The position numbers and the translations under genes are program-made. A stretch of 25,481 nt of DNA, taken from NCBI GenBank assembly GCA_046497275.1, contig JAWOFX010000022.1, positions 1 through 25,481 on the forward strand. The letters run 5' to 3'. Source of the stretch: Promethearchaeia archaeon (GTDB lineage: Archaea; Asgardarchaeota; Lokiarchaeia; Sigyniarchaeales; SOKP01). Shown piece after piece: positions 4,210-15,169 of the stretch (position 1 is its first letter; each line of letters begins with the position of its first letter). A model generated the notes under the pieces. The model was not told where the DNA came from. It saw nothing but the letters and a program-made list of their open reading frames with translations, and did no database searches.

Positions 4210-5487
4210 TTATTCTTTTAATCCATCAAAATAATATGGTGTAAGAATTGGAAAAAATTCTCGATTCAAATCCTTGAAAACTTCCTCAGGTATTAAAGAC
4301 CCATCTTTTGGCGGCTCTTTATAAAGATTCTTTAATTGTCTCACATATTCTCTCATTTCAAGCTGCAAGAAATATGTCCCTTTCTGAGCGATTATTACTA
4401 AATAATACGGGCTGAGATATTCCACGATTATAGCTCTATCTCCAAATCTTAAAGAATCTATCCCGGCTTTTGATTTGGCAACTTCTTCAGAAACATTTGA
4501 GAAAGCTATAGTTAAGCCACCTATTAGCTGAGAACTAGCTCCACTTTCTCCAAAATCTGCAAATTCTTCAGAAAGAGGTTTATAGTAGTGTGTGATGCCA
4601 GCTTCATCAACTAAACTTACTACTTGCACATTGGGAGGTACTAATCCAATCAATTCAGGATTTATAAAATGGGGTAAACTTATCAATAGTAACGCTAACA
4701 CAAAAACGGGAGTATTATAGGTAGAAAATTCAATTCCAGCAACTTCCAGAATACCTTCTAAAAATTCAAAAATCACATTTATGAATAAAAGAACTATTCC
4801 AGCAAACTGCATACCACCTAAAATTCTTGCTCGACGGCTATGAGCGAAAAAAGCTTTTGACATCCTTATCCCTATCAAAAATACAGAAAAAAAGACAATA
4901 ATTGCTCCAATTTGTACTAATGTTCTCAATAAGATTTGAAATAAAGTATTTGTTCCGTAATCCAACGTAAGTAATGAATACAAATTCTTTAAACAATAAG
5001 GAATTAAGCAGAAAGTTATCAAAATACTCAACCAAGAACGTGGACTATCTCTATCATTGAGTTCAAAATGAAAAAACAAAAAATAAATAGAAAGTGTAGA
5101 AGTTAAAAGTTGGATCTCAAATAGCCATGTTTGAGGGACAGTTCCAGCAGGATTCCAGTTTAACCAACCAAAAAAATATGAGGTAGCGGATGTAAACAGA
5201 CCAATTACCATAAATATAAGTGAAGTTAATCCAAATTTTACAGCACGATAAATTATCAATAAACCAAAAAGGAACATCATAATTGCTAGTGAGAAAAAAT
5301 ATGGAGAGAAAGAACCAATTTGAGCATACACAATATATTTTCTAAACCAAGATTCTATTATAAAACTTGTTAGAATTAAATAGATGAGAGCAAATATCGC
5401 AACTATTCCTATAATAATTATAATATAATTTTTGACATCCTTTATATTAATGATTTTATTTCTTAAAGACAAATTTTTTTTTCCCAT
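4210..5487 (-). CDS. Multi-pass (~8 TM) membrane protein with C-terminal longin-like domain
   Basis: About 8 hydrophobic helices in aa 21-276. Residues ~286-412 fit the longin beta-beta-alpha-beta-beta-beta-alpha-alpha pattern (VQVVSLVDEAGITHYY / QLIGGLTIAF / IDSLRFGDRAIIVEY / YLVIIA / LQLEMREYVRQLKNLY). Confidence 0.7.
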   Translation of the reverse strand: MGKKNLSLRNKIINIKDVKNYIIIIIGIVAIFALIYLILTSFIIESWFRKYIVYAQIGSFSPYFFSLAIMMFLFGLLIIYRAVKFGLTSLIFMVIGLFTSATSYFFGWLNWNPAGTVPQTWLFEIQLLTSTLSIYFLFFHFELNDRDSPRSWLSILITFCLIPYCLKNLYSLLTLDYGTNTLFQILLRTLVQIGAIIVFFSVFLIGIRMSKAFFAHSRRARILGGMQFAGIVLLFINVIFEFLEGILEVAGIEFSTYNTPVFVLALLLISLPHFINPELIGLVPPNVQVVSLVDEAGITHYYKPLSEEFADFGESGASSQLIGGLTIAFSNVSEEVAKSKAGIDSLRFGDRAIIVEYLSPYYLVIIAQKGTYFLQLEMREYVRQLKNLYKEPPKDGSLIPEEVFKDLNREFFPILTPYYFDGLKE

Positions 5488-5509
5488 AATATATCTAAAA
5501 TTTATTTTT

Positions 5510-5517
5510 AATATAAA
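5510..5517 (-). promoter_or_regulatory. Candidate TATA box for a leaderless transcript of the TM-longin gene
   Basis: TTTATATT on the minus strand ends 23 nt upstream of ATG 5487. The AT-rich background lowers specificity. Confidence 0.35.
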
Positions 5518-5617
5518 TAAGAGATAAATGATCTTATTTAAAAATAAGCCTAAGTCCTAGGAGAAATCCTATTAAACATTTCATAGCTAATATATAATAG
5601 TTTGAAAAAAAGAGAAG

Positions 5618-6178
5618 CTATATAAGCTTTAATATCTTTTCTAACTTTTTTATCATATCTCCTGCTGATTTACTGAAGATCCGCATCATAGGTTCCTTTC
5701 CTTTTGCTCCCGTATCCCATATTATATCTGGTACTCTACCTAATTCATTTACTGTGTTTTTAATTAGCCACTGCATTGTGGAATGTTCTCGATTTTTAAC
5801 TTTTTCTGGTTGCTCATCTCTCCTTATCTCACGTAACTCTAGATTAGTATTTTCACTAATGCCTTTGGTTAATTCGGGATGAAATTTCAGATTCATTACA
5901 ACGTTTATACTTTTATCAAATTCTTTTGCCGTAAGAATGAGTCTAGCTGTGTGATCAGAAACCCCGAATTTAATATCTCCGACAGCTTTTGGATATCCTC
6001 CGATAACAGTTATCCGTCCTTCAATAGCAGCTATATCTTCTACAGATCTTGCCTCTTTAATAGCCACAGAAATATTTGTACGGACTTCTGGGATTAATAA
6101 ACTAAATTTTCTTAAACTTGAAAAATAATCATAAATCTCCTTAACTTGGTTTATTGCGTTTAATCTGAGATTCATCAT
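5618..6178 (-). CDS. thiN: Stand-alone thiamine-phosphate synthase ThiN domain protein
   Basis: LIPEVRTNI, AAIEGRI, FGVSDHTAR, VMNLKF and PDIIWDTGAKGKEPM motifs. No ThiD or HTH domain is fused. Confidence 0.85.
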   Translation of the reverse strand: MMNLRLNAINQVKEIYDYFSSLRKFSLLIPEVRTNISVAIKEARSVEDIAAIEGRITVIGGYPKAVGDIKFGVSDHTARLILTAKEFDKSINVVMNLKFHPELTKGISENTNLELREIRRDEQPEKVKNREHSTMQWLIKNTVNELGRVPDIIWDTGAKGKEPMMRIFSKSAGDMIKKLEKILKLI

Positions 6179-6258
6179 TGATTTGGTATTATCATCATCT
6201 TTATCTTTATTTTTATAAAAATGAAATTATCTATAAAAAGCCAATCATCTCGCATTTA

Positions 6259-6819
6259 TCACCCAGCTCTTTCAAACGCCCATTTTGCCTTATCATCTAA
6301 GCCCAATGCTTTATAAGCTCTGCCTAAGTATAAAAATGCATCTGGAAAATCAAAGCATTCCTTGACTAGTTTGAAAAGGTGATTAATTGCCATGTCATAT
6401 CTCCCCCTTAGATAATTTATTTTTCCTCTTAAAAACATAATTTCATACTTTTTATTTTTATAATCTTTAAATTCATCAAGGACCTCAAGAGCTTTCTTAA
6501 ATTCTTTCTGTTTAACAAAATCATGTACTAAATCTAATCCTTTCAAAAAAATCATTTTCTCTCCTATTTGATGAATTTTGTTCACATTTTCGATTTCTAA
6601 TTGATTTTTGAGTTCTTCCTCCTTTTCTTTTTCTTTCTCTCTTATGTATTCTTGAAATCTATTTATTATATTCTCATTATATTTAGTATTACACAAAGGA
6701 CAATTGAAAGAATGCGTTAACCATTCTCTTAGGCAAGATATATGAACAGCATGACCATTTGGGCACTCTTCATATGAATCTGAAATTTGCATATGGCAAA
6801 TTATACATGTGGGTGGCAT
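6259..6819 (-). CDS. RING-H2 zinc finger - charged coil - TPR protein (putative E3 ligase/adaptor)
   Basis: C5-x2-C8...C19-x3-H23-x2-H26-x2-C29-x3-W33...C40-P-L-C43. An E/K-rich helix follows (aa ~55-80), then TPR-type repeats (MFLRGKINYLRGRYDMAINHL; AFLYLGRAYKALGLDDKAKWAF). Confidence 0.85.
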   Translation of the reverse strand: MPPTCIICHMQISDSYEECPNGHAVHISCLREWLTHSFNCPLCNTKYNENIINRFQEYIREKEKEKEEELKNQLEIENVNKIHQIGEKMIFLKGLDLVHDFVKQKEFKKALEVLDEFKDYKNKKYEIMFLRGKINYLRGRYDMAINHLFKLVKECFDFPDAFLYLGRAYKALGLDDKAKWAFERAG

Positions 6820-6977
6820 TTGAATATTTTCGTTTCTTTTTAAGAATTATTTTGCAAAATATGAATCTTTAGATAATTATAAAAATCAAGTTTTTTTAAA
6901 TTGTCCTTTTCCAAAAAAGGTTAAAATGATATATTATTATAGTTGTTAAATAAATATCAATATGTAAGGGATATCTA

Positions 6978-8540
6978 TTGTCGATAAATCTAACAGAATT
7001 ATTTGAAACTTTATGCAATAATTTTTTTGAAGTGAATCAAGATATTGATGCGATTATTGTTTCTGATGTTGATGGATTAATTATTTTTGGTGAGAAAAGA
7101 GAGGAAGTGGACCTTGAGATAGTATCTGTTCTCACTTCAATAGTTCATCCCGTTTTAGAGAGAATCCGAGATGAATTTGCATTTCAACAATTTGGGACTG
7201 CCTCCTTTGACACAGAAATACATAGATTGCTTTTTATTTCAATCGATGAAAAAATTACATTAAGTCTTGTGATTGATACCATGGCATCTATAGATAAAGT
7301 ATCTCCTTACGCATATTTTTTAGCAGAAAAAACCGCAAGGATCTTAAATGCTGAAGAAGATGATGTTATCCAGCTAGATATTCCAAACTTCGAATATGAA
7401 GCGGAAAAAGCAAAAAGACTTAAAAATCAAATATATCAACTGCGACTTGATACGGGGAGAAAGTTCAGGTTTAAATTCATAATTATTGGGGATCATGAAG
7501 TAGGAAAAACTTCAATCGTGCGCCGATTTGTTGAGAATAAATTTACACATGATTATCGTGCTACAATCGGCTTGAATATCTTGACACATTCTATAAACTT
7601 CCTTGATAATGATGTAAAATTAAGCATCTGGGATATTGGAGCTCAAAAATATTTCCGTCGTTTTAGAAATACTTATTATATCGGAGCACAAGCGACTTTC
7701 ATTGTTTTTGATTTAACTGTAAGACAATCTTTTGAGAATGTAATAACTTGGTTTCAAGAAATTGATAAGTTTCTAAACACAGAAGACTTGCCTATAATAA
7801 TTGTTGGAAATAAATCAGATTTAAAAGATGAAAGAGTTGTGGATTATCAAGAAGGGGTAGAATTGACAAATTCATTATCTGAGAGAGGAATAAAAAATAT
7901 CTCTTATATCGAAACAAGTGCACTCACAGGTGAAAATATAAATGATGCATTCAGATTGATATCCTATCATTATATTATGAAAAGTAAAGAAATCGAGGAA
8001 AATAAACTTAAAGCAGATGTTTTAGAAGAAATTAATAGTATAATCCCCTTAAAAGAGAATTTAACTATTACATTTTTAACTGAGAGCAAATATTGGAGCC
8101 CAGCTCTCCAAATTTTAAATTCAATATTATCTGAATTTGAATTAGCTAATAAAATTGAAGAAAAAAATAGGCATATTTATGAATATAAAAATGGAATATG
8201 TCTACGTAATTATTCATATGATTCAATGGAGATTAAAAATTCTGATGGAATTTTTTGTATTTTCGATGCAAGGAATCGGGACTCCATTAAGCCTGAATGG
8301 AGAGATATTATTATTGAAATCATTAAAACGATAGATGAGAAAAAAGTTGTTTTAGTCGGAATTAGGGTTTCTGAAAATGTTGATTGGTCCAAAATTATGG
8401 AGGAATTTAATATAAATGAATATTTAGAGAAGAAAATGATATCCTTTTTATTTTTTAGAATTGGGGAGGAATATCGATTGGAAATTTTTGATCAATTAAA
8501 AGTAATGTTTAGTACGATTGAATCTGTTTTTCTTATATAG
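6978..8540 (+). CDS. Roadblock/LAMTOR-like domain + Rab-like small GTPase + degenerate GTPase-like C-terminal domain
   Basis: aa 1-125 are Roadblock-like (IDAIIVSDVDGLII). aa ~163-332 carry G1 GDHEVGKT, G2 YRATIG, G3 WDIGAQ, G4 NKSD and G5 ETSAL. aa ~360-520 echo the GTPase strands without the G motifs. TTG start. Confidence 0.88.
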   Translation: MSINLTELFETLCNNFFEVNQDIDAIIVSDVDGLIIFGEKREEVDLEIVSVLTSIVHPVLERIRDEFAFQQFGTASFDTEIHRLLFISIDEKITLSLVIDTMASIDKVSPYAYFLAEKTARILNAEEDDVIQLDIPNFEYEAEKAKRLKNQIYQLRLDTGRKFRFKFIIIGDHEVGKTSIVRRFVENKFTHDYRATIGLNILTHSINFLDNDVKLSIWDIGAQKYFRRFRNTYYIGAQATFIVFDLTVRQSFENVITWFQEIDKFLNTEDLPIIIVGNKSDLKDERVVDYQEGVELTNSLSERGIKNISYIETSALTGENINDAFRLISYHYIMKSKEIEENKLKADVLEEINSIIPLKENLTITFLTESKYWSPALQILNSILSEFELANKIEEKNRHIYEYKNGICLRNYSYDSMEIKNSDGIFCIFDARNRDSIKPEWRDIIIEIIKTIDEKKVVLVGIRVSENVDWSKIMEEFNINEYLEKKMISFLFFRIGEEYRLEIFDQLKVMFSTIESVFLI

Positions 8541-10723: not shown

Positions 10724-12262
10724 ATGAAAGAAATTATTTTCTACGGTGATGATGCTTTTTTTTATGAATTTCCTGAAGATATTGATATTTACTACGCTAA
10801 ACCTCCTATCACTCCTATTAAAAATCAGGAATTGGCAATCGAACATGCAATTAAAAACCCTATAAACTCACCAAAATTACAAGATTTGATTAATTCTAAT
10901 TCTACTATTGCAATCTGTTTTGACGATATAAGCGTCCCCTTACCTCCTATGAAAAATGAAATTAGAAAAATAGCCGCTGAGATTGTTTTAAAAATTCTTA
11001 AAGAGATTGGTGTTAAAGATGAAAATTTATATTTTTTATGTGCTACTGGTTTACACAGAAAATGTAAACCTAAAGAATTAAAATATCTTTTAGGTAAAAA
11101 ATTATACCGTAAGTATAAAGATCGCATATTTAATCATGATGCAGAAGATAAAATTAACTTAAAAACTCTTGGAAAAACTCAAGAGGGAGATAAAATACAG
11201 ATTAATAAATTAGCAACTGATGCAGATCTTATTATATATCTGAATATTAGTTTTGTACCATTAAATGGTGGTTGGAAGTCTATAATAGTTGGATTAGGAA
11301 GTTATAATACCATCATTCCTCATCACTCACCTCAAACGCTTAGGCAGGGATCATATATGGATCCGGAATCATCAGAATTACACCATATTATCTGGGAGAT
11401 GGGAGATCTTATTAAAGATAAGCTTAAAGTGTTTACAATTGAAATGGTTATCAATAATAATTTCTATAGTGGGATATATAAAAGAATATATAAACCACTT
11501 AAATCTACTCAGAGAAAACCATCTTTATGGAGGGGATTAGCGCTTACAACGTTAAAAGCCTTACCAAAATTTATAAAAGCATATGTTAGGAAAAATCTTA
11601 AAGCGAATTACGAACTGATAGATGTTTTTGCTGGAGATATTGAGGAAACTCATAAAAAATCATTAGAACTTATGAATACTCAATTAAATGTCGAAATTTC
11701 AAAAAAATATGATATTATCATATATGGAGTCCCTAATCTTACTCCCTATAATGTAGGTTCTGAAATGAATCCATTACTGCTACATAATCTTGTTTCTGGA
11801 TATCTTTTTAATATGCATCAAGGAGAATCCCCTTTAAAAAACAACGGCACTTTAATTATTTCAAATCCAGCGTATGAAAAATTTGATTCTGAACAACATG
11901 TTTCTTATAAAGATTTTTATTATGATATTATGACTAAAAATCATGATATTTTTAATTTAAAAGAAGTTGAATATGAATATTTGGATAATAAGAAATATAT
12001 TGAAAAATACAGAAATCAATATGCCTACCATCCAGTTCATGCTCCCATTGTATATTATTGGGGTGTAAGGGGACTCTTGAAAATCGAAAATATTATAGTT
12101 GCTGGGGCTAAAAATAAAGATGTGTTAAAAGTCTTAGGATATGAATATGCAGAAAATTTAGATGAAGCTATTGAAAATGCCAAAAGGCGGTATCCTAATA
12201 ACTGTTCAATTGCATATTTCTGCATTCCGCCACTATTCATAGCAAAATTAATTAAAAATTGA
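10724..12262 (+). CDS. LarA-like (DUF2088, nickel-pincer nucleotide superfamily) racemase/epimerase, long divergent subtype
   Basis: P(I)NSPKL, FDDISVP, ATGLHR, NHDA, GGWKS, PHHS, plus a C-terminal LarA-like domain. Confidence 0.82.
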   Translation: MKEIIFYGDDAFFYEFPEDIDIYYAKPPITPIKNQELAIEHAIKNPINSPKLQDLINSNSTIAICFDDISVPLPPMKNEIRKIAAEIVLKILKEIGVKDENLYFLCATGLHRKCKPKELKYLLGKKLYRKYKDRIFNHDAEDKINLKTLGKTQEGDKIQINKLATDADLIIYLNISFVPLNGGWKSIIVGLGSYNTIIPHHSPQTLRQGSYMDPESSELHHIIWEMGDLIKDKLKVFTIEMVINNNFYSGIYKRIYKPLKSTQRKPSLWRGLALTTLKALPKFIKAYVRKNLKANYELIDVFAGDIEETHKKSLELMNTQLNVEISKKYDIIIYGVPNLTPYNVGSEMNPLLLHNLVSGYLFNMHQGESPLKNNGTLIISNPAYEKFDSEQHVSYKDFYYDIMTKNHDIFNLKEVEYEYLDNKKYIEKYRNQYAYHPVHAPIVYYWGVRGLLKIENIIVAGAKNKDVLKVLGYEYAENLDEAIENAKRRYPNNCSIAYFCIPPLFIAKLIKN

Positions 12263-12277
12263 TTATTGATTAATCAG

Positions 12278-15169
12278 ATGGATAAAAAACAATTACTAAA
12301 AAAGCTTGGACACTATTCTGGGAATCGACGATTAGATGTTTCTAATTGTCAAGAACCTCGATTTGATGATGAAGAGACAAAGATAAAATGGATAGAAGGA
12401 GAACGTGAAGTAAGAATAAAAAGAAAGTTAAAGCGATGGCGCAATAACATTTTGAAAACAATTAAACCAAAAAATTTAACTATTCATCTCGTTGGACAAT
12501 CTCATATTGATTGTGCATGGATGTGGCGCTATGAACAGACTCGCAAAAAATCGCAAGTAACCTTCAGTAAAGCAATATTTCATTCCAATATATTCCCTAA
12601 TAAATTCTTATTCGCGCTAAGTCAACCAATACTCCTCGAATGGATAAAAGAAGATAATCCAGAATTATTTCATAAGATCCAAGAAAAAGTCAATAATAAA
12701 AATATAGAACTTGTTGGGGGCTCTTATGTAGAACCAGATTGTATGATGCCTTCTGGTGAAGCTATGATAAGACAGCGCTTATATGGAATGAGATTTTATA
12801 AAAAATATTTTAAAAAATTGCCTAAAGTAGAATGGTTCCTTGATTCTTTTGGCTTTAATTATGGGCTCCCCCAAATACTCGCAAAATCTGGAGCGAAATA
12901 CTTTTGGACTAGTAAAATGACTTGGAATAGAGAAACTACATTTCCATTTGTTCATTTCTGGTGGAAAGGTGCTGATGGGACTCAATTATTAGCTGCGAAC
13001 TTTCATTATGATCCACAGGTATTAGAAACATGGGAGGAATATGAAATAGGACGGCATCTTTTAAAACCAAACGGGAAAAAAGAATGGAAGTATTCTGATG
13101 ATTACTCTTTATTAAAAAATCATGTTCAAGAAAATGAAATATGTCCTCATGTTGGGTTCTTCTTTGGACAAAGTGATGGAGGTCATGGCCCAACTCATCG
13201 CGAAGTTGCTGAAGCGAATAAACTCTCTGAGTTAACTTGGTTTAAATGGAGTCGTGTAGAAAATTTTTTCAAAGAACTTGAGTATTATTCAGATGATTTT
13301 CCAGTATGGAATGATGAATTATATTTGGAATTTCATAGAGGGTGTTTCTCTAATCATGGACAAGTAAAAAGATACAATCGAAAATATGAAAATTTACTCC
13401 CAAGTCTTGAAAAATTAGCAGTATTAATTTCGTTAATGTTTCCTGATTATAAATATCCTCAAAAAGAGATTGAGAATTTATGGAAAATTACTCTCAAGAA
13501 TCAATTCCATGATGTTTTACCGGGTAGTTCAATTCCTGAAGTCTATGACGATTGTTGGGAAGATTGGAATATTCAAAATAGTATGGTTAATGAAGTAATC
13601 AGTAAGTTAGGAAAATTATATTCAACCGAACAGTCTCAGAGAATAAATAATCCTTCAAAAAAAGTAATATTATTCAACTCTTTGAGTTGGAATAGAACCG
13701 CACGAGTTTTTATTCCAATTGATATTTTTGATGAAAAAATTAAGTTTGATGATAAAGAAAAACCACCATATGCTAAATTCATTATTTTAAATGAAAATAA
13801 AAAGGAATACATTTGTCAACCCGTTTCAGCTGAGGATCCTAACACTATTGATCCCAAACCCGCTGGATGGTGGATGGTACTAGAAATAGAAAAATTAAGT
13901 ATAATACCTGGTGAAATTCAATTAATTCAAGATCAAGAAATTCATAAAATATATGGTACCAGTAAAAGCCAATTGGAAGCATCATCTACTACCTTAAAAA
14001 ATGGAGATATAAATTTAGAAATTGATCCCTCGACTGGTGCTCTTTTGAAACTCTCTTCACGGAAAATTAATAGCAAGAAAAACTTAATCAAGGGTGATTC
14101 TTCAAATTTGACATTTGGATTTTTTGATGATGTTCCTATTCAATATCACGCCTGGAATCTAACTCCAGAATATTGGAATCAACCAATTGAATTATCAAAT
14201 GAAAAGAATGTCGAAATTATACTCTCTGAAAACGGGCCGATATTTAACACTATTCAAATTAAAAGAAAACTAGGAAAAAATCCAGTAATCCAAAAACTAA
14301 CCCTCTTTAAAGACTCTCCTCTCCTTTATTTGGATTATATGGCAGATTGGAACCAAAAAAATATAATGTTAAAAGTTAAATATAGTCCCAATTTAGCTGC
14401 TGAAGAAGTCATTGCTGATGGAATGTATTGCGCAGTTTCTGCTAAAATGAATCCGGAAACTCCTTGCGATAAAGCCAGATTCGAGAAAATTTGTCATAAA
14501 TATTTTGATGTTAGTACTCCGGAAAAAAGCTGGGGGATGGCACTTATAAATGAAGATAAATATGCGTTCGATGTTAGAGATGGAGATATGAATTTAACAA
14601 TGCTACGAGCATGCAAATATCCAGAAACTGCTCCTGAAGCATGGGTTAATAAAGAGAGAGAATTGAATGAGAAATATTTTTCCCATAGAGTTCCCGAATA
14701 TAGCGGACTAGGTCCTTTTAGCTGTCGTTATGCATTATTCCCTCATAAAGGTAGCGCTTTAAAAAATTCTGATGGTTCTCCAAATGTGGTGGTAAATCAG
14801 AAAGCTGAGGAATTCAATAATCCCATCATGGTCATTCATGTAGAGAAAAATATCAATTTGGATAACAAAATTTTTAAAAGGGACATATCTATAGAATTAA
14901 CACCTGAAAATGTGTTTTTAAAAGTCATGAAAGAAGAGGAGTGGGATCAAGATAATTCAATTATCTTAAGATTTCATGAAGTTTGTGGAATTTCTTCAAA
15001 AACAAAAGTTAAATTTGGAAATATCATTACTCAGAAATTTTCTTCGATATCATCAATAGATCTTTTAGAAAGAACTGTTGAGAAGGAGTATATTTGGGAT
15101 GAAATAAAAAAAGTGTTAAAATTTGAAATTGGAAAATTTGAGATTGTGTCCTTTAAATTAACTATATAG
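12278..15169 (+). CDS. Glycoside hydrolase family 38 alpha-mannosidase
   Basis: QSHIDCAWMW (Zn ligands), WFLDSFG (nucleophile Asp), GQSDGGHGP, ELYLEFHRG and NQFHDVLPGSSI. The ORF track starts at TTG 12266; ATG 12278 is also plausible. Confidence 0.93.
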   Translation: MDKKQLLKKLGHYSGNRRLDVSNCQEPRFDDEETKIKWIEGEREVRIKRKLKRWRNNILKTIKPKNLTIHLVGQSHIDCAWMWRYEQTRKKSQVTFSKAIFHSNIFPNKFLFALSQPILLEWIKEDNPELFHKIQEKVNNKNIELVGGSYVEPDCMMPSGEAMIRQRLYGMRFYKKYFKKLPKVEWFLDSFGFNYGLPQILAKSGAKYFWTSKMTWNRETTFPFVHFWWKGADGTQLLAANFHYDPQVLETWEEYEIGRHLLKPNGKKEWKYSDDYSLLKNHVQENEICPHVGFFFGQSDGGHGPTHREVAEANKLSELTWFKWSRVENFFKELEYYSDDFPVWNDELYLEFHRGCFSNHGQVKRYNRKYENLLPSLEKLAVLISLMFPDYKYPQKEIENLWKITLKNQFHDVLPGSSIPEVYDDCWEDWNIQNSMVNEVISKLGKLYSTEQSQRINNPSKKVILFNSLSWNRTARVFIPIDIFDEKIKFDDKEKPPYAKFIILNENKKEYICQPVSAEDPNTIDPKPAGWWMVLEIEKLSIIPGEIQLIQDQEIHKIYGTSKSQLEASSTTLKNGDINLEIDPSTGALLKLSSRKINSKKNLIKGDSSNLTFGFFDDVPIQYHAWNLTPEYWNQPIELSNEKNVEIILSENGPIFNTIQIKRKLGKNPVIQKLTLFKDSPLLYLDYMADWNQKNIMLKVKYSPNLAAEEVIADGMYCAVSAKMNPETPCDKARFEKICHKYFDVSTPEKSWGMALINEDKYAFDVRDGDMNLTMLRACKYPETAPEAWVNKERELNEKYFSHRVPEYSGLGPFSCRYALFPHKGSALKNSDGSPNVVVNQKAEEFNNPIMVIHVEKNINLDNKIFKRDISIELTPENVFLKVMKEEEWDQDNSIILRFHEVCGISSKTKVKFGNIITQKFSSISSIDLLERTVEKEYIWDEIKKVLKFEIGKFEIVSFKLTI

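Follow-up and report, generated by a model that had tools for sequence, protein, structure and literature searches.

Longin and Roadblock domains are well known as platforms for GTPases. The MglA-MglB and Rag-Ragulator systems both combine a Roadblock fold with a G domain of the Ras superfamily, a pairing that is also predicted for the archaeal locus described here. This locus forms part of a 25,481-nucleotide stretch of a Lokiarchaeal genome (Promethearchaeia archaeon, assembly GCA_046497275.1, contig JAWOFX010000022.1), the whole of which is referred to as the window. Three genes of eukaryotic-signature type are clustered within 4.3 kb of the window, and encode a transmembrane (TM) protein with a longin-like domain (TM-longin), a protein combining a RING-H2 finger with TPRs (RING-TPR) and a fusion of Roadblock, Rab-like and pseudo-GTPase domains (GTPase fusion). 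The original prediction, made from the sequence alone, read these genes as a unit leading from a membrane receptor through a GTPase switch to ubiquitin-type turnover. The observation itself is confirmed, as the four genes of the region, including an intervening thiN, are real and their domain calls hold, while the interpretation overall is partly supported. The locus is best explained by inherited synteny (probability roughly 0.6), whereby it forms the edge of a slowly rearranging gene block rather than a dedicated three-component pathway.

A cultured Lokiarchaeon carries 74 GTPase-related genes, 26 of which are fused to Roadblock or longin domains, and its GTPase genes generally do not share operons with the regulator genes (Tran et al. 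2024, Commun Biol, PMC10933270), while an Asgard E1-E2-RING ubiquitylation cascade works in vitro (bioRxiv 10.1101/2023.07.25.550441). The GTPase fusion of the window resembles the Asgard fusions of Tran et al. in its predicted N-terminal Roadblock domain, its eukaryote-like small G domain and its occurrence in a Lokiarchaeal genome with dozens of paralogues. The Roadblock- and longin-fused forms of that study are, however, Rag/Arf-like, whereas the window G domain is Rab-like, is accompanied by an additional, predicted nucleotide-dead G-like domain and has a conserved RING-TPR neighbour. A Rab-like three-domain form with a dead G-like domain (the '?' architectures of Fig. 1f aside), a family-wide divergent pairing of RING-TPR and GTPase genes, and a multi-TM longin protein are not described in either PMC10933270 or 10.1101/2023.07.25.550441. 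The features of the locus are as follows:

4210 to 5487, minus strand: TM-longin protein, 425 amino acids (open reading frame, ORF)
5618 to 6178, minus strand: stand-alone ThiN, 186 amino acids (ORF; Pfam ThiN, 2.8e-51)
6259 to 6819, minus strand: RING-TPR, 186 amino acids (ORF; Pfam)
6820 to 6977, no strand: divergent spacer of 158 bp between RING-TPR and the GTPase fusion
6978 to 8540, plus strand: GTPase fusion, 520 amino acids, TTG start (ORF; Pfam)

All of the ORFs were recovered where they had been predicted, the shared divergent intergenic region is exactly 158 bp long, and thiN does separate the TM-longin gene from that of RING-TPR. The names that public sources give to homologues point to an organism among the metagenome-assembled genomes of Promethearchaeota/Lokiarchaeota. 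The domain calls were essentially right, with the longin and pseudo-GTPase domains being recognized from fold alone.

Gene order within the family

The window was compared with the orthologous regions of 20 other genomes of its family (f1), spanning 12 genera, onto which the window proteins were mapped. A recurring block, NUDIX-thiC-thiN(DN)-RING-TPR<->GTPase-IsoDH, can be observed across these loci, in which the GTPase fusion adjoins an isopropylmalate/isocitrate dehydrogenase gene (IsoDH). The divergent RING-TPR/GTPase junction is kept in 21/21 loci, with a median spacer of 155 bp (range 113 to 291 bp), while the co-directional thiN(DN)-RING-TPR junction is kept in 17/18, with a median gap of 30 bp. 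The RING-GTPase junction is thus no better kept than that between RING-TPR and thiN. The junctions NUDIX-thiC, thiC-thiN and GTPase-IsoDH are kept in 6/14, 8/15 and 9/18 loci, respectively. Coordinates from two phylum-wide searches furthermore place both genes divergently on one contig in 47 additional f1 genomes, at an offset of 1.13 to 1.27 kb in 46 of these and of 1.9 kb in the remaining one, and in two f1 genomes the genes are found on different short contigs. As the f1 genomes are kin, these counts do not represent independent events. Four f1 genomes in which RING-TPR has no match (G006, G232, G214 and G266) also lack a ThiN match, and the region has probably either remained unassembled or been lost as a block, so that nothing can be inferred from them about independent loss.

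We propose that the divergent arrangement of RING-TPR and the GTPase fusion would go back to a single event at the root of one Lokiarchaeal family and have been passed on thereafter, and that the equally tight arrangement of RING-TPR followed by thiN or thiDN would have been inherited likewise. The locus would then be a block of the order NUDIX, thiC, TM-longin (where present), thiN, RING-TPR, GTPase fusion and isopropylmalate/isocitrate dehydrogenase, with two eukaryote-signature genes amid housekeeping genes, and the adjacency of these two would mostly reflect ancestry and shared promoter space. The equally well kept RING-thiN junction shows to what extent ancestry by itself can keep the genes of this block side by side, and the operon-poor GTPase and regulator genes of the cultured Lokiarchaeon (PMC10933270) were also counted in favor of inherited synteny. 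Such genes are moreover numerous in the window's genome, as had been cautioned, with approximately 30 small-GTPase loci, five RING matches and 14 Robl_LC7 matches in 3.85 Mb. Roughly 0.08 chance RING-GTPase adjacencies are expected per genome by our own estimate and, given the approximately 30 GTPase loci and five RING matches, a single such adjacency in a genome would be no great surprise on chance grounds. For now, the main value of the result is cautionary. Since Lokiarchaeal genomes are rich in eukaryote-signature genes and change little in local gene order within a family, adjacency at family depth is by itself no sign of a pathway, and the thiamine genes beside RING-TPR, which are kept equally well, provide a concrete case.

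RING-TPR and GTPase genes beyond the family

Orthologs of RING-TPR are present in 63/68 f1 genomes, with identities down to approximately 45% across the 12 f1 genera, and in every sampled genome of the sister family f2 (7/7). No homologue of the C-terminal domain of the GTPase fusion was found in f2 (0/11 in one search and 0/7 in another), and RING-TPR thus evidently functions there without this GTPase. The three-domain GTPase was identified in 67/68 f1 genomes by a phylum-wide search with its C-terminal domain, which returned none in the 28 other sampled families of the phylum, bar one genome with 9% contamination. In this genome (G314, of the distant family f26), a RING-TPR/GTPase pair of 47-54% identity is found on one short contig (C309:1-3968), which has probably been misbinned from the window's family. 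Distant copies of the GTPase occur in families f3 and f4, and in the f3 genome G026 the RING-TPR and GTPase genes are on different contigs, each in mid-contig position. The members of the proposed module therefore do not all stay linked across diverged lineages. Of the synteny across relatives that the three-gene reading implies, the RING-TPR/GTPase pair is kept throughout f1, while the TM-longin gene is not, and beyond f1 the pair is incomplete or its genes are apart in f2, f3 and f4. In f3 and f4, the gene directly downstream of the GTPase ortholog, in the same orientation, encodes a class I Glu/Gln-tRNA synthetase (L034:6902-9983(+) and L035:1461-4909(-)).

The neighbors of RING-TPR in f2 differ by genus, and include thi genes, Alba, an alpha/beta hydrolase and a proteasome subunit, or RING-TPR instead carries an N-terminal fusion of 350-470 residues. 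Several observations on both families weigh against a purely ancestral explanation of the pair. Within f1, the RING-TPR/GTPase junction is never broken, in 21 loci and 47 further genomes, while three of the four neighboring junctions are broken repeatedly. In the f2 genome G320 (L052:8008-9485(+)), RING-TPR is preceded at a distance of 105 bp by a co-directional proteasome subunit gene, in keeping with a ubiquitin-type role, and ThiW and ThiDN then follow in the same locus. A plain Ras-family GTPase gene is located closely upstream of RING-TPR in G039 and G321, which belong to different f2 genera, and together with the GTPase fusion of f1 this gives two independent GTPase contexts among approximately seven distinct upstream contexts of RING-TPR. 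A rough, post hoc binomial estimate (p ~0.005-0.05, with GTPases taken as 1-2% of genes) makes this recurrence unlikely by chance. The two neighbors, of 226 and 193 amino acids, are 45% identical to each other and lie beside a pyruvate phosphate dikinase gene (L025:6897-8644(+) and L051:7401-9655(+)); in G321, whose genome is a single contig of 6.04 Mb, the GTPase gene is found approximately 0.9 kb upstream of RING-TPR. They are not orthologs of the fusion, as that of G039, the one tested, ranks only 14th among the GTPase matches of that genome to the fusion.

These observations raise the possibility that RING-TPR and the GTPase fusion work as a functional unit of two genes under the joint control of one divergent promoter region. 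In such a unit, the E3-like protein would determine how much of the GTPase is present or which state it adopts or, alternatively, the GTPase in its GTP-bound form would recruit or activate the ligase for other clients. The divergent adjacency across a spacer of 113-291 bp in every f1 genome with both genes on one contig and the independent small-GTPase neighbor of RING-TPR in two f2 genera are in keeping with such a unit, as are the presence of a UBC-type E2 in the same genome, the reconstitution elsewhere of the Asgard E1-E2-RING cascade (bioRxiv 10.1101/2023.07.25.550441) and the coverage of both genes by RNA-library contigs. Set against this are the retention of RING-TPR in f2 without this GTPase, the unlinked genes in f3, the equally well kept thiN junction and the paralogues of the GTPase fusion, 12 of which, in 11 loci, have no RING neighbor. 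The C-termini of the GTPase are furthermore not conserved, leaving no EEVD-like tail for TPR docking, and no conserved operator can be recognized within the spacer. On balance, we consider a two-gene unit possible but doubtful, and it is somewhat less probable still that a small-GTPase switch and a ubiquitin-type ligase are genuinely coupled in archaea from one divergent control region, with the GTPase recurrence in f2 reflecting the same biology. If the pair does work together, it would be a prokaryotic case of GTPase signalling wired to ubiquitin-type modification, a link at the heart of membrane traffic in eukaryotes. Such a pair is amenable to tests with purified proteins.

The window spacer, at 18% G+C, must hold both promoters. 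The spacers of 19 loci, inspected by eye over the 60 nt before each start, contain 13-27% G+C and no block conserved between genera, while a scan for bacterial-type promoters and terminators, which is not applicable to archaea, remained at shuffle level. RNA-library contigs from two salt-lake studies (at least 99% identity) touch every gene, but contigs of this kind carry no information on expression rank, strand or operon structure. The contigs of four metatranscriptome runs, with starts at 6948, 6954, 6975 and 7022, share an end within 7277-7285, and those starting 3-30 nt before the TTG start of the GTPase fusion are a weak indication of where its transcript may have its 5′ end. Another contig spans from within RING-TPR to 6870, and the contig ends may thus faintly hint at back-to-back transcript starts in the spacer. 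Prediction of a complex between the GTPase fusion and RING-TPR (alignments A1 and A2) yielded a score of 0.00, which gives no verdict and is evidence neither way.

The three-domain GTPase has a second group of paralogues (544-559 amino acids; L041-L047 and L049), with neighbors of its own. A 415-425 amino acid protein, with no Pfam match where tested, is encoded convergently downstream in 7/8 of these loci, and a 650-843 amino acid protein, in some cases with apolipoprotein-like, coiled-coil-type Pfam matches, divergently upstream in 6/8. Two further paralogues, of 822 and 896 amino acids, carry an extra C-terminal TPR array in G232 (L053:3687-6155(+) and 11526-14216(+)), a layout observed in just one of approximately 70 genomes. 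Kinship of these arrays with the repeats of RING-TPR was considered and rejected, as they match at the generic TPR level only.

Predicted architecture of the GTPase fusion and RING-TPR

The GTPase fusion consists of an N-terminal domain of predicted Roadblock fold (residues 1 to ~125), a Rab-like G domain (~160-340) and a G-like domain without a P-loop (~356-520), and was modelled by AlphaFold2 (AF2) with a predicted local distance difference test (pLDDT) score of 77.5. The G domain matches Pfam Ras over residues 166-328 (1e-46; 158.8 bits), and its closest solved relatives are Rab14, Rab1 and Ypt1 (Rab14/Rab1 profile E-values: 1e-46 to 1e-45), along with a Thorarchaeal Rab. Rab3C superposes on it over 172 residues (Z: 27.6; root-mean-square deviation, rmsd: 1.7 Å). 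It belongs among the Rab-like members of the Ras superfamily, with conserved G1 (GDHEVGKTS), switch-I Thr196, G4 (NKSD) and G5 (ETSAL) motifs. It is not a eukaryotic Rab proper, as the G domain is internal, being followed by a 180-residue domain, and there is no C-terminal Cys. The G3/switch II motif (residues 219-223; window 7632-7646) reads WDIGAQ in most orthologs, with DIGAQ in place of DxxGQ and Ala at the canonical Gly60 position, and a few orthologs have WDIGGQ or WDFGGQ (alignment A1). This Ala may alter the dynamics of switch II.

The modelled N-terminal domain has the helix-strand order a-b-b-a-b-b-b-a of Roadblock/LC7 proteins, and matches a cluster of which 100% of the members are Robl_LC7 with TM-scores of 0.75/0.82. 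The Pfam model Robl_LC7 (PF03259) is silent on this domain (no match at E ≤0.1), and a scan of the genome with PF03259 also misses the gene. By the order of strands and helices in the model, residues 356-520 appear to adopt a G-like alpha/beta fold, and neither GxxxxGK[ST] nor NKxD is found in this domain in the ortholog alignment. It has TM-scores of 0.60-0.62 to EngB/Der clusters, yet also of 0.58 to flavodoxin-like clusters. Homology between this domain and the G domain was considered and set aside, as the hhalign match, although in register (b4-a3-b5), has a probability of 7% and is too weak, and hmmsearch was equally faint. From these folds we infer a 'pseudo-GTPase', predicted to be nucleotide-dead. 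CENP-M similarly has a G-like alpha/beta fold lacking nucleotide-binding motifs, and CENP-M-like language-model features (atlas score 0.89) serve as a lead only, there being no detectable sequence homology between CENP-M and the C-terminal domain. Among proteins with two G domains, the Miro protein MIRO1 could be aligned over 306 residues across both domains, with a Z of 18.8 but an rmsd of 21.7.

As in the Rag proteins, which form dimers with one partner in a different nucleotide state, G and Roadblock domains are combined in one chain. The domain order is, however, reversed, with the Roadblock at the N-terminus in the window fusion, and the second G-like domain is in the same chain and lacks a P-loop. 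Judging from the folds, the GTPase fusion would be a self-contained switch, with its own Roadblock domain as a platform for dimerisation or regulators, as in MglB or the C-terminal domains of Rag, and the nucleotide-dead G-like domain as a scaffold.

RING-TPR, which is encoded by a single-copy gene in the window's genome, comprises a RING-H2 finger, a charged helical linker and TPRs. The RING-H2 assignment exceeds the cut-off of zf-RING_2 (PF13639; 29.4 against 27.3 bits), and all eight ligands are present in the canonical C3H2C3 spacing C-x2-C-x10-C-x3-H-x2-H-x2-C-x10-C-x2-C. Among 25 orthologs, conservation of C5, C8, C19, H23, H26, C29, C40 and C43 is complete or at least 90%, while Trp33 and Pro41, which are of E2-contact type, are invariant. 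The TPR assignment is borderline for the window copy alone, with TPR_14 scoring 23.8 bits against a cut-off of 23.5, TPR_11 falling below its cut-off (23.8 against 26.8) and several other TPR models also just under threshold, while orthologs in f2 score up to 32.5 bits with TPR_1. With its complete C3H2C3 set and E2-contact Trp and Pro, RING-TPR resembles the eukaryotic RING-H2 E3 ligases, and is on sequence grounds a putative E3-ligase-type adaptor, of which the TPRs are the likely client-binding part; from the predicted folds, it would recruit an E2, with the client chosen by the TPRs. CHIP is likewise a TPR-bearing E3, but its TPRs precede a U-box, whereas the RING of the window protein precedes the TPRs.

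A UBC-type E2 (UQ_con, 75 bits) is encoded elsewhere in the same genome (L057:2869-3340(-), contig C79), by two short overlapping ORFs in which an HPN motif and the ICLD context of the catalytic Cys are visible; the split may be due to an assembly frameshift or a non-standard start. The RING-TPR gene lies outside the ubiquitin/E1/E2 and ESCRT clusters. In one f2 genus (g14), RING-TPR forms the C-terminal part of a protein of 570-700 amino acids (L028:8801-10900(-), L031:4212-6239(+) and L026:6987-8699(+)). The N-terminal 350-470 residues of these long forms match no Pfam family and none of the profiles of the Roadblock, G and C-terminal domains, and atlas scores for the N-terminal 460 residues are low (<0.8).

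Thiamine genes and the TM-longin gene

The window thiN gene, which encodes a thiamine-phosphate synthase domain, follows RING-TPR co-directionally at a distance of 80 bp. In most related genomes, ThiN makes up the C-terminal half of a ThiD-ThiN protein. This fusion is present in nine f1 loci examined and in f2, and ThiN stands alone in the window's genus (g1) and at least four other f1 genera. The stretch that seems to separate thiN from RING-TPR in many genomes is accounted for by the ThiD half of the fusion. Among the neighbors of RING-TPR, those that persist most and reach deepest are thiamine genes. RING-TPR and thiN or thiDN may form an operon. A functional association of RING-TPR with thiamine metabolism, for example in the turnover of thiamine-biosynthesis enzymes, with the GTPase as a bystander, would be consistent with the co-directional thiN or thiDN that follows RING-TPR at a median gap of 30 bp in 17/18 f1 loci, and with the presence of thi genes (Thi4, ThiW, ThiDN and ThiC) near RING-TPR in four f2 genera. 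The f2 genera g14, g20 and g21, however, have RING-TPR without adjoining thi genes, an Rfam scan of the whole window gave no match to a thiamine pyrophosphate (TPP) riboswitch or any other RNA element, and no RNA-library contig bridges RING-TPR and thiN. As we also know of no RING protein with a role in thiamine metabolism, we regard this association as improbable.

The TM-longin protein has no Pfam or NCBIfam match. Its AF2 model (pLDDT: 76) comprises eight TM helices (~22-275) and a C-terminal b-b-a-b-b-b-a-a domain (~287-410), for which the top Foldseek matches in the PDB are AP sigma/mu, MON1-CCZ1, TRAPP, zeta-COP and MglB, all of them longin or roadblock proteins. These matches are modest (E-value: 4.5e-3 or weaker; TMt: 0.5-0.65), and helix a1 is modelled at a pLDDT below 50. 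The even number of helices and the K/R-rich N-terminus suggest that the longin domain is probably cytoplasmic, and the folds suggest that the protein could be a membrane-anchored longin platform. Longin-bearing membrane proteins, such as the SNAREs Ykt6, Sec22 and VAMP7 and the SRX subunit of the SRP receptor, hold a longin fold at the membrane facing the cytoplasm, as is predicted for TM-longin. The window longin domain differs in its position C-terminal to an eight-helix membrane domain of no recognized family, in its lack of a SNARE motif and in its modest fold match.

Full-length TM-longin homologues are present in 6/6 g1 genomes, while searches of the other genera gave none of comparable similarity, and the 20 homologues in a large protein collection are all at least 46% identical. 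The gene lies between thiC and thiN in three g1 genomes (the window's, G002 and G001) and approximately 3 kb from thiN in G004, and has unrelated contexts in G005 and G006. The best reading is therefore that TM-longin represents a recent genus-level insertion between thiC and thiN of the NUDIX-thiC-thiN cluster, and the gene would travel independently of the RING-TPR/GTPase pair. The full pathway, with TM-longin as receptor or guanine nucleotide exchange factor (GEF) platform for the GTPase fusion, the output of which would be read or ended by the RING-TPR ligase, does draw on three genuine domain types, on the established role of longin and Roadblock domains as GTPase platforms, and on the span of no more than 4.3 kb that the three genes occupy in three g1 genomes. 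It is largely refuted by synteny, as TM-longin was detected in a single genus, where G005 and G006 have it unlinked, as the pair occurs in 11 other genera with no detectable TM-longin ortholog, and as outside f1 RING-TPR and the GTPase are separated or only one of the two was found. Together with the intervening thiN and the 130-bp upstream region of its own that TM-longin possesses, this makes such a pathway highly improbable, and inherited synteny remains the preferred explanation.

TM and longin look-alike models in other Promethearchaeota clusters suggest that the architecture is wider than this gene. A relation between a 751 amino acid protein (L054), which is weakly similar to the longin domain of the TM protein, and the 684 amino acid RING protein of the genome was considered and rejected. 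The flanks of the locus encode metabolic functions, with GH4, NUDIX and ThiC proteins upstream, while an Iso_dh-family dehydrogenase, an ADP-ribosylglycohydrolase, a LarA-like enzyme and a GH38 protein are encoded downstream, followed by AOR and two ThiS/MoaD-like genes.

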